A stretch of 15,562 nucleotides of DNA. Origin: Clostridia bacterium (GTDB lineage Bacteria; Bacillota; Clostridia; Christensenellales; Aristaeellaceae). How positions within the stretch are numbered: the first letter of the stretch is position 1; each line of letters starts with the position of its first letter. A program made the translations under genes and the position numbers. This document shows positions 2,974 through 3,144 of this stretch, in pieces. The stretch is from positions 1 to 15,562 of the forward strand of contig JAZLIA010000047.1 in the NCBI GenBank assembly GCA_045617125.1, read 5' to 3'. Below the pieces are notes generated by a model, which was not told the DNA's origin, did not search any database, and was given only the letters and a program-made list of their open reading frames with translations.

Positions 2974-3144
2974 AAATGCATGAATATTTTTTCTGAAGGT
3001 AATGACAAAAGAACGCAGTTCGGCTACGCTTGCTTGCTTGCTTGCTTGCTTGCTTGCTTGCTTGCTTGCTTGCTTGCTTGCTAAAAGTCTGCCCGTCTGC
3101 GTCACGCCTGTCAACTCCTTTTTTGTAAATTTTTTGTATTTCAT
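2971..3144 (-). CDS. Hypothetical small ORF containing the tetranucleotide repeat (57 aa from ATG 3144; 44 aa from the SD-preceded GTG 3105)
   Basis: Translation: MKYKKFTKKELTGVTQTGRLLA(SKQA)4SVAELRSFVITFRKNIHAF. There is no SD before the ATG. AAGGAG lies 9 nt before the in-frame GTG at 3105. Whether it is translated is uncertain; its interest is regulatory. Confidence 0.3.
   Translation of the reverse strand: MKYKKFTKKELTGVTQTGRLLASKQASKQASKQASKQASVAELRSFVITFRKNIHAF
3028..3082. repeat. Perfect tetranucleotide microsatellite (GCTT)x13 plus GCT (AAGC on the minus strand)
   Basis: Read directly from the sequence: 13 uninterrupted GCTT units at 3028-3079 followed by GCT at 3080-3082. Confidence 0.98.

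Follow-up and report, generated by a model that had tools for sequence, protein, structure and literature searches.

A tetranucleotide repeat in the leader of a Clostridia RiPP operon as a candidate phase-variable transcription attenuator

The repeat and the operon leader

The window analysed here, a stretch of 15,562 nucleotides (nt) from a Clostridia bacterium (contig JAZLIA010000047.1), carries at its beginning an operon for a ribosomally synthesised and post-translationally modified peptide (RiPP), and the 433-nt leader of this operon contains a microsatellite. Positions 3028-3082 form a perfect (GCTT)13.75 repeat on the plus strand (Tandem Repeats Finder: period 4, 13.8 copies, 100% matches, 0 indels); the raw sequence gave the same 55-nt tract, as a first-pass annotation of this DNA had described it. 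All neighbouring genes of the first 3.5 kb lie on the minus strand, on which the tract reads AGC(AAGC)13. The leader contains the following features in the order of transcription:

3200..3228, minus strand: P1, the likely operon promoter, with -35 TTGGCT (3228-3223), a 17-nt spacer and the extended -10 TGcTATAAT (3208-3200)
3135..3193, minus strand: stem-loop opening the P1 transcript (RNA fold -17.4 kcal/mol, z -2.7)
3115..3138, minus strand: A-rich tract TACAAAAAATTTACAAAAAAGG, read from the sequence, ending in the Shine-Dalgarno (SD) sequence AAGGAG (3120-3115) of the leader open reading frame (ORF)
3086..3114, minus strand: P2, a second promoter-like element over the leader start, with TTGACA (3114-3109), 17 nt and CAGACT (3091-3086)
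2971..3105, minus strand: leader ORF (uORF) from frame analysis, GTG 3105-3103, 44 codons, stop TAA 2973-2971
3028..3082, minus strand: microsatellite AGC(AAGC)13 (Tandem Repeats Finder and sequence reading)
3006..3030, minus strand: T1, a small hairpin from a terminator scan, AGCGUAG CCGAA CUGCGUU followed by CUUUUG
2910..2972, minus strand: T2, a strong intrinsic terminator by RNA folding, stem 2972-2914, U tract to 2910
2846..2909, minus strand: 5' untranslated region (5'-UTR) segment conserved in the related loci L016 and L018, with the maturase SD (2866-2857), the ATG (2849-2847) and a TGA (2848-2846)

In a consensus scan P1 scored 10/12 plus the TG extension, and the near-consensus promoter previously placed upstream of the tract (TTGGCT-17-TATAAT) was thus recovered on the minus strand. 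P2 scored 9/12 with a weak -10, CAGACT, and the tract starts 3 nt further on. The same scan revealed no promoter-like site from T2 to the maturase ATG. The tract had also been located upstream of a maturase gene and inside a small ORF. The radical-SAM gene was indeed found at 2849-1521, and a minus-strand ORF, given as 2971-3228 in the ORF list, holds the whole tract; its realistic SD-led start is the GTG at 3105 (AAGGAG-N9-GTG, 3120-3103). In the assembled allele its product is MTQTGRLL(ASKQ)n ASVAELRSFVITFRKNIHAF with 44 amino acids (aa). Between the end of the tract and the maturase ATG lie 178 nt and, within them, T2 (-25.6 kcal/mol, z -5.6; 0/200 shuffles folded as well). This terminator, whose first paired bases are the final two bases of the leader stop codon, is the link between ORF and operon that the first-pass annotation had missed. 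The 5' arm of T1 (hairpin 3030-3012) uses the last repeat unit. Within the A-rich tract, Tandem Repeats Finder also reported an 11-nt repeat with 1.9 copies at 3119-3138, and a hairpin analogous to the 5' stem-loop is present in L012, the locus of a close relative.

As RNA, (AAGC)n is A/C-rich and folded as essentially unstructured. No sequence complementary to it was found in the leader, and the minimum free energy fold contained only weak self-pairs inside the tract. A search of 2850-3282 against Rfam gave no match at E<=1, the sole real match in the window being a T-box at 11481-11695; a known cis-regulatory RNA family such as a riboswitch or T-box was thus rejected as an identity for the leader.

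Frame states of the leader ORF

A gain or loss of one 4-nt unit had been proposed to change the frame of the small ORF without touching the promoter. This was reproduced by simulation: changes of -3 to +3 units led to exactly three outcomes for the leader stop, and the tract lies 3' of the -10 elements of both P1 and P2.

n-1 allele: leader of 25 aa, stop TAG 3026-3024, inside T1 and 52 nt before T2
n (assembled) allele: leader of 44 aa, stop TAA 2973-2971, on the foot of T2
n+1 allele: leader of 87 aa, stop TGA 2848-2846, past T2 and overlapping the maturase ATG (ATGA)

In the n+1 frame the stop is situated 64 nt past the end of T2. This geometry, which comprises the tract, the ORF and its SD, the terminator, the three stop positions and a conserved layout, can be read directly from the DNA. 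Stochastic transcription switches with a repeat near the promoter are known from the TA repeats in the promoter spacer of hifA/B and the upstream TAAA repeats of nadA, and the window tract, likewise near a promoter, would resemble them in its effect. Since it lies downstream of both -10 elements, the tract cannot alter the -35/-10 spacing, and promoter-spacer switching was ruled out.

Orthologous leaders

A microsatellite scan was conducted over ~169 kb, namely the window and 20 related loci (L001-L020). Tracts of at least 15-18 nt were present only in the window and at the equivalent leader sites of three close relatives, which indicates that the (AAGC)n tract is not a chance occurrence. The leaders of the close relatives are listed with the identity of their maturases to that of the window:

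L012: maturase identity 92%; (GGCAC)8, then directly (AATC)12
L013/L014: maturase identity 86%; contigs start within (AGACA)6, so at least 6 units
L016: maturase identity 75%; (CATA)10
L015: maturase identity 83%; no tract
L017: maturase identity 77%; no tract
L018: maturase identity 69%; no tract

A start inside a long repeat is the usual outcome of a k-mer break. The tract-bearing orthologous leaders share an upstream TTGAC(A/G), an SD and an in-frame start codon, followed downstream by a strong terminator (T2 equivalents of -37 kcal/mol in L012 and -25.8 kcal/mol in L016). In L016 an in-frame stop likewise adjoins the foot of T2. The current frame of L012 stops in T1, a homologous and stronger hairpin than in the window (-11.5 kcal/mol, z -4.3), and its other two frames are open across T2, one of them ending at an ATGA overlap. 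The five units of the window and its orthologues all measure 4 or 5 nt, so each of them shifts the frame. The position of the tract and its frame-shifting property are kept while its sequence is not, as is expected of selection for mutability rather than for coding content. We have more confidence in a selected, hypermutable and frame-shifting element as such than in the specific mechanism proposed below. At 11 genome loci with distant maturase relatives (33-46% identity) no microsatellite was detected; the tract is therefore not a trait of the wider maturase family.

The double tract of L012 consists of perfect (GGCAC)8.4 and (AATC)12.75 repeats back to back in one leader (L012:1988-2079), which would mean a switch with two independent frame-shifting counters. 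In L016, the 23-nt sequence CGAAAAAATGATACAAATTT[TC]C is present in two direct copies immediately 5' of P1 (L016:7640-7690), perhaps as an operator or as the scar of an insertion.

The turnover of units bears on the possibility that the tract acts as an untranslated 5'-UTR RNA which tunes messenger RNA (mRNA) processing, stability or Rho loading, the leader ORF being irrelevant. An A/C-rich unstructured tract suits Rho loading, P2 would make the tract the 5' end of an untranslated RNA, and post-transcriptional control has a precedent in the repeat of Haemophilus influenzae hmw1A (PMC12721329). However, the units differ completely among orthologous leaders, which makes a sequence-specific RNA role unlikely, and their lengths of 4-5 nt, never 3 or 6, fit frame shifting. 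The lack of a complement to (AAGC)n makes an hmw-like hairpin impossible, while the SD and start codon are conserved at a fixed distance and sister loci, described below, translate through the tract. We consider this reading unlikely.

A cassette family in metagenomes

A scan of IMG/VR for (AAGC)7 returned 71 loci. Most of them were rejected as cassettes of the window type, being classic repeats inside the 5' ends of phage DNA methyltransferase genes of Pasteurellaceae-like prophages and low-GC gut phages. Only three matches (L077, L026 and L083) resemble the window leader, and one of them, L077, is a clear homologue that precedes an AAA-ATPase/LuxR-type regulator. In the IMG/VR prophage L058, a phage-type DNA methyltransferase gene has at its 5' end an AAGC tract of ~166 units (664 nt; L058:841-1504), far longer than usual contingency tracts. 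In L061 promoter-like sequence, a hairpin and (AAGC)n make up a module that occurs twice in tandem, with 8 and 20 units, before one gene (L061:5300-5530).

A scan of metagenomes for TTTAGC(AAGC)4 yielded at least 120 loci (L092-L211) from termite gut, human gut, kangaroo and other samples, from which a non-redundant set of 96 cassettes was derived. A pattern built on the T1 hairpin common to the window and L012 gave 0 matches in metagenome and viral contigs, this pattern being too specific. The cassettes share one order: tandem promoters, SD, ATG and (AAGC)n, followed by terminators or by direct fusion to a gene. Among the matches listed, a P1-like strong upstream promoter occurred in 54% of 71 non-redundant cassettes (8% of shuffles), P2 scored at least 10/12 in 52% of the 96 (0.5% of shuffles), and the ATG stood most often 26-27 nt ahead of the first full unit. 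The GTG of the window, 26 nt ahead of the first full AAGC unit, occupies this modal position. An AAAGG(A/G)G just 5' of the TTGACA is conserved over the family. The genes behind the cassettes encode secreted and surface proteins, lipoproteins, a collagen-like protein, acyltransferase-3 proteins, DNA methyltransferases, and LuxR/MalT and LytTR regulators, which is the classic contingency repertoire.

The first-pass annotation had called the tract very unusual. It is rare per genome, in agreement with that view, but (AAGC)n tracts are by no means exotic among metagenome contigs of the gut Clostridia type. The cassette family is widespread and previously undescribed: the literature searched contained no description of an (AAGC)n cassette, nor of phase-variable RiPPs.

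Two architectures were distinguished. The coding type has SD-ATG-(AAGC)n joined straight to a gene. At L159, L147, L136 and L152 the cassette abuts the conserved N-terminal D..R..VV..H motif of acyltransferase-3 genes that are unrelated and independent of one another; three of these genes are in frame, and that of L159 is off by one unit. These fusions presumably provide phase-variable acylation of surface glycans. The methyltransferase of L205 is in frame across 20 units, and in L107 and L175 the cassette leads into a signal peptide. Such sister loci fuse SD-ATG-(AAGC)n in frame to real proteins, an indication that the start codon 5' of the tract is in use.

In the uORF type, to which the window belongs, the tract is followed by T1, by T2, in most cassettes ~50-90 nt downstream, and by a gene with its own SD. 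T1 has the family consensus GC-GGA UAAC UCCGC UCUUUUG. Under strict criteria it was seen in ~15 of ~45 uORF-type cassettes and was rejected as a general terminator; for this reason, and because that of the window is weak, T1 does not carry the main argument. Typically the T1 loop (GGA-UAA-C) stops one frame within 3-8 nt of the tract; another frame stops before or at T2, and the third beyond T2, often near the gene start. Among 23 non-redundant uORF-type cassettes, a frame passing the 3' end of T2 was present in 16 (10.7 expected from shuffles, P~0.012) and an early stop in 19 (11.9 expected, P~0.002). The cassettes are related to one another, and these statistics therefore lend modest support. 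Cassettes of this type with a detectable leader start are spread roughly evenly over the three frame states.

The RiPP precursor family of the window recurs in the cluster at L124:4300-5260 (MEKY.KAQMEVIEFE.EDVITTSGC...), where an (AAGC)13.75 cassette lies between two precursor genes and is followed by genes for PqqD, an S24-like peptidase and an ABC transporter.

The orientation of the cassettes also bears on the strand that is read. On the plus strand of the window, open ORFs of 32-64 aa span the tract, and one of them (3002-3196, MTKERSSATLACLLACLL...) could encode a hydrophobic (LACL)n peptide. However, the ATG at 3002 is preceded by no usable SD, family matches were not found, and at the cassette loci examined, L077 and L124 among them, the downstream gene has AAGC on its sense strand. 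Coding on the plus strand was thus ruled out by cassette orientation and retains next to no probability.

Length variation between samples

Unit numbers differed between otherwise nearly identical loci. The isolate genome L077 and the metagenome contig L101 have 8.5 and 14.5 units, with 0/400 mismatches in the upstream and 4/400 in the downstream flank. Other pairs sharing the upstream flank have 13.75 and 9.75, 14.5 and 16.5, or 29.5 and 27.5 units, and one termite-gut promoter cassette was found with ~5 to 21 units before different genes. Many cassette contigs end inside the tract. Judging from these assemblies, such tracts change in length and in unit. The frame-shifting tracts of the orthologues, the varying (AAGC)n family and its members in all three frames point to the contingency locus that the first-pass annotation had suggested.

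The same observations speak against a tract without regulatory role, whether a microsatellite that hitch-hikes neutrally or an artefact of assembly. In favour of such a reading, three close operon relatives are tract-free. On the other hand, different tracts occupy the same leader position, and like tracts turn up again in independent assemblies, which makes an artefact unlikely. The ~169 kb of related sequence is otherwise microsatellite-free, more than 100 cassettes have a conserved geometry of promoter, SD, ATG and terminator, and perfect tracts of 10-30 units are not kept neutrally. This explanation appears very improbable.

The P2 element

In the family, P2 has the form TTGACA-(16-18)-TAnAAT, and 5-8 nt separate the end of its -10 from the first full repeat unit. 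Both architectures preserve the P2 hexamers, while the spacer varies. P2 overlaps the leader SD and start codon; P2 transcripts would therefore lack the start codon. Were P2 dominant in vivo, the leader would be untranslated on these transcripts; the P2 of the window is weak (9/12), and P1 is plausible as the operon promoter. A speculative explanation is that P2 keeps the tract transcribed and that T1 disposes of the untranslated P2 transcripts. In H. influenzae hmw1A, deletion of the promoter strongly impaired repeat-number change, so that transcription of the tract was needed (PMC12721329).

Alternatively, P2 could yield a short terminated repeat RNA (5'-AGC(AAGC)n-T1) with a function of its own or in tract destabilisation, any effect on the operon being secondary. 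Most of the cassettes listed have a strong TTGACA-17-TAnAAT ending 5-8 nt before the first full unit, a small hairpin and U run come directly after the tract, and the transcription requirement in hmw1A (PMC12721329) agrees with a role in destabilisation. In the window, however, the -10 of P2 is poor and T1 is weak, and a trans-acting RNA in which AAGC, AATC, CAUA and AGACA are interchangeable is implausible. The chance that such an RNA or its transcription is the main function seems small. A P2 transcript is moreover compatible with a frame-dependent switch rather than an alternative to it, as P2 could serve that switch as its mutator.

It is possible, if rather doubtful, that the window leader is one copy of a portable phase-variation cassette which has been grafted repeatedly onto unrelated genes, with P2 as a built-in mutator that sustains slippage. 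Such a cassette may consist of P1/P2, SD, ATG, ~8 codons and (AAGC)n or another 4-5-nt tract, in a T1/T2 or a gene-fused form. The grafting appears to be the work of uncultured Clostridia-type bacteria of the gut and of their mobile elements. If true, the switch would be a modular and transferable stochastic device rather than a set of independently evolved contingency loci.

A predicted attenuator switch

From the frame analysis and the comparison of leaders, we regard the tract as a probable hypermutable switch, driven by slipped-strand changes, in a leader ORF that would be translated and would control a transcription attenuator before the RiPP operon. Most likely, the tract lets the bacterium switch the RiPP cluster on and off at random. 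Transcription would initiate at P1 (3228-3200), and a ribosome would load at AAGGAG-N9-GTG (3120-3103) and then translate (AAGC)n. With a unit of 4 nt, every gain or loss shifts the frame of the ribosome and would place it in another frame with another stop relative to T2. Since the tract is situated in a separate upstream ORF outside the regulated gene, the frame must be relayed via the terminator or by coupling. In the n-1 allele T2 would be free to fold, transcription would end and the operon would be low or OFF. In the assembled n allele the terminating ribosome would cover the 5' arm of T2 and allow read-through, a state predicted to be ON by analogy with pil1 of Streptococcus gallolyticus. 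In the n+1 allele the ribosome would translate across T2, again with read-through and possibly with translational coupling via ATGA, and expression is predicted to be highest. For the window locus itself we infer leader translation, termination that depends on ribosome position, and switching in the population.

Several observations weigh against such a switch. The leader ORF, which is predicted to be translated, starts with GTG, P2 would start transcripts at the tract and past the leader start, and T1 is weak in the window (-7 kcal/mol, z -0.9). L124 has no obvious T2, and L016 lacks any frame that passes T2. The tract is missing in the close relatives L015, L017 and L018 and is thus dispensable for the operon. 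The enrichment of read-through frames is modest and was obtained with loci that are kin to one another and not independent. Finally, the exact maturase sequence was found on one contig only in the collection, which makes this a single-sample locus.

Comparison with known systems

The closest counterpart is the pil1/pil3 system of S. gallolyticus, a genetically proven switch that consists of a promoter, a leader-peptide gene with (GCAGA)n and a stem-loop terminator (Danne et al. 2014; PMC3894217). In pil1 and pil3, the leader becomes longer when units are gained or lost out of frame; the ribosome then keeps the terminator from forming, and the operon passes to high expression (PMC3894217). Among pil isolates, those with a leader stop at least 28 nt before the terminator were mostly low, and those with a stop immediately upstream of it or with translation through it were high (PMC3894217). 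Under this stop-position rule the window alleles are predicted to be low/OFF (n-1), ON (n) and ON (n+1). Like pil1/pil3, the window sequence presents a promoter, an SD-led leader ORF enclosing the whole tract, a stem-loop terminator and an operon; its unit is likewise not a multiple of 3, and its frames stop well before, at or beyond the terminator. The stability of T2 (-25.6 kcal/mol) is comparable to that of the pil1/pil3 terminators (-18.7 and -28.2 kcal/mol), and S. gallolyticus, a Gram-positive gut commensal, can be likened to the host of the window. In contrast, pil1 has 22 copies of the 5-nt unit GCAGA and controls pili, whereas the window has 13.75 copies of the 4-nt unit AAGC and a radical-SAM RiPP operon; T1 after the tract, the ATGA overlap in one frame and P2 over the leader start also set the window apart from pil1. 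On balance, this comparison favours a leader-peptide repeat with an attenuator, now placed on a RiPP operon, as the likely nature of the tract. A stochastically switched RiPP operon had been put forward as a notable regulatory mode; its mechanism is not new, having already been demonstrated for pil1/pil3 (PMC3894217).

The perfect tract also resembles the tetranucleotide loci of H. influenzae and Neisseria, AAGC being GCAA rotated. Contingency loci of these bacteria include GCAA in lav, AAGC in N. gonorrhoeae, lic1A, lex2A and mod, with ~10-30 perfect units. The coding-type sisters L159, L147, L136, L152, L205 and L107 exhibit exactly the frame-shift mechanism of Haemophilus and Neisseria. The window differs in that its tract lies outside the regulated gene, and its hosts are uncultured Clostridia-type bacteria, not Proteobacteria. 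With the tract 178 nt upstream of the maturase ATG and a terminator between them, an intragenic contingency locus was ruled out for the window.

The heptanucleotide repeat in the 5'-UTR of hmw1A, with a hairpin processed by RNase III, is a transcribed intergenic repeat that regulates post-transcriptionally (PMC12721329). The window tract is likewise a transcribed repeat between promoter and gene, but it has no complementary arm, and its predicted effect is exerted via the reading frame and not via tract length. A long repeat hairpin of the hmw type was ruled out by folding. As in trp and pyrBI attenuation (PMC3894217, PMC12360218), the position of a ribosome on a leader ORF would decide on terminator formation. 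Unlike in these systems, the input would be a heritable, reversible change of DNA length and not the supply of amino acids or nucleotides, and no alternative antiterminator hairpin is evident in the window leader.

RiPP and bacteriocin clusters are normally viewed as being under quorum-sensing or stress control. If the predicted switch is real, an uncultured gut anaerobe would practise bet-hedging in the production of an antimicrobial or signalling peptide, and random, heritable and reversible switching would explain clusters that are silent in a given isolate. To our knowledge, the leader-peptide-repeat attenuator has so far been known from one streptococcal species. The cassettes suggest that it is widespread in gut metagenomes (termite, human, kangaroo), where it precedes classic contingency genes. 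The value of n mod 3 would predict the expression state, and the unit number could be fixed by design for heterologous expression of the cluster.

RiPP operon and genomic setting

The genes of the operon and the features adjoining it are:

1521..2849, minus strand: radical SAM/SPASM RiPP maturase, 442 aa (Pfam Radical_SAM 4e-15, Fer4_12)
1314..1469, minus strand: precursor peptide, 51 aa, start GTG 1469, SD GAAGGAGGTG, sequence MKKFEPAKLEVVEFNAQDVIVTSG followed by a Cys-containing core
978..1235, minus strand: PqqD-family RiPP recognition protein (Pfam PqqD 9e-13)
275..994, minus strand: ScmC/HPr-kinase-like protein, from the ScmC (PF27840) annotation of orthologues, with a weak NCBIfam ScmC match
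3283..3531, minus strand: ORF of 82 aa
3552..4073, plus strand: cutC

The top NCBIfam matches of the maturase were radical SAM/SPASM peptide maturases, every one of them under its cut-off. Its relatives occur in Oscillospiraceae, Lawsonibacter, Faecousia and similar metagenome-assembled genomes of gut Clostridia, and close relatives number about eight among 5.8 billion proteins. The maturases of L012, L013 and L015-L019 share 60-92% identity with that of the window. The leader part of the window precursor, MKKFE..LEVVEF.AQDVI.TSG, is conserved, and a common form, MKKFE.A.LEV[VI]EF.AQDVI.TSG, was shared by eight related loci (the window, L012, L013 and L015-L019). The Cys-containing core is hypervariable and different at every one of these eight loci.

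The G+C content is ~41% over bases 1 to ~3535 and ~55% over the remaining window. The high-GC part is ordinary chromosome, with genes for an asparaginase, QueH, an FMN-dependent dehydrogenase, an M20 peptidase and NAD(P)HX repair. The cutC gene adjoins the jump in G+C content near 3535, and its match to the CutC profile starts only at position 84 of 202, the first 83 positions being absent. Since the high-GC flank is ordinary chromosome and cutC lacks this part of the profile, the RiPP island appears to have been inserted into cutC, or cutC to have been truncated by the island. The 82-aa ORF lies at the margin of the low-GC island and immediately 5' of P1; it gave no Pfam or NCBIfam match and is absent at the orthologous loci examined. 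In the high-GC part, the T-box leader at 11481-11695 (Rfam RF00230, 105 bits, above the gathering score) precedes a class-I Trp/Tyr-type tRNA synthetase gene at 11743-12750 on the plus strand.

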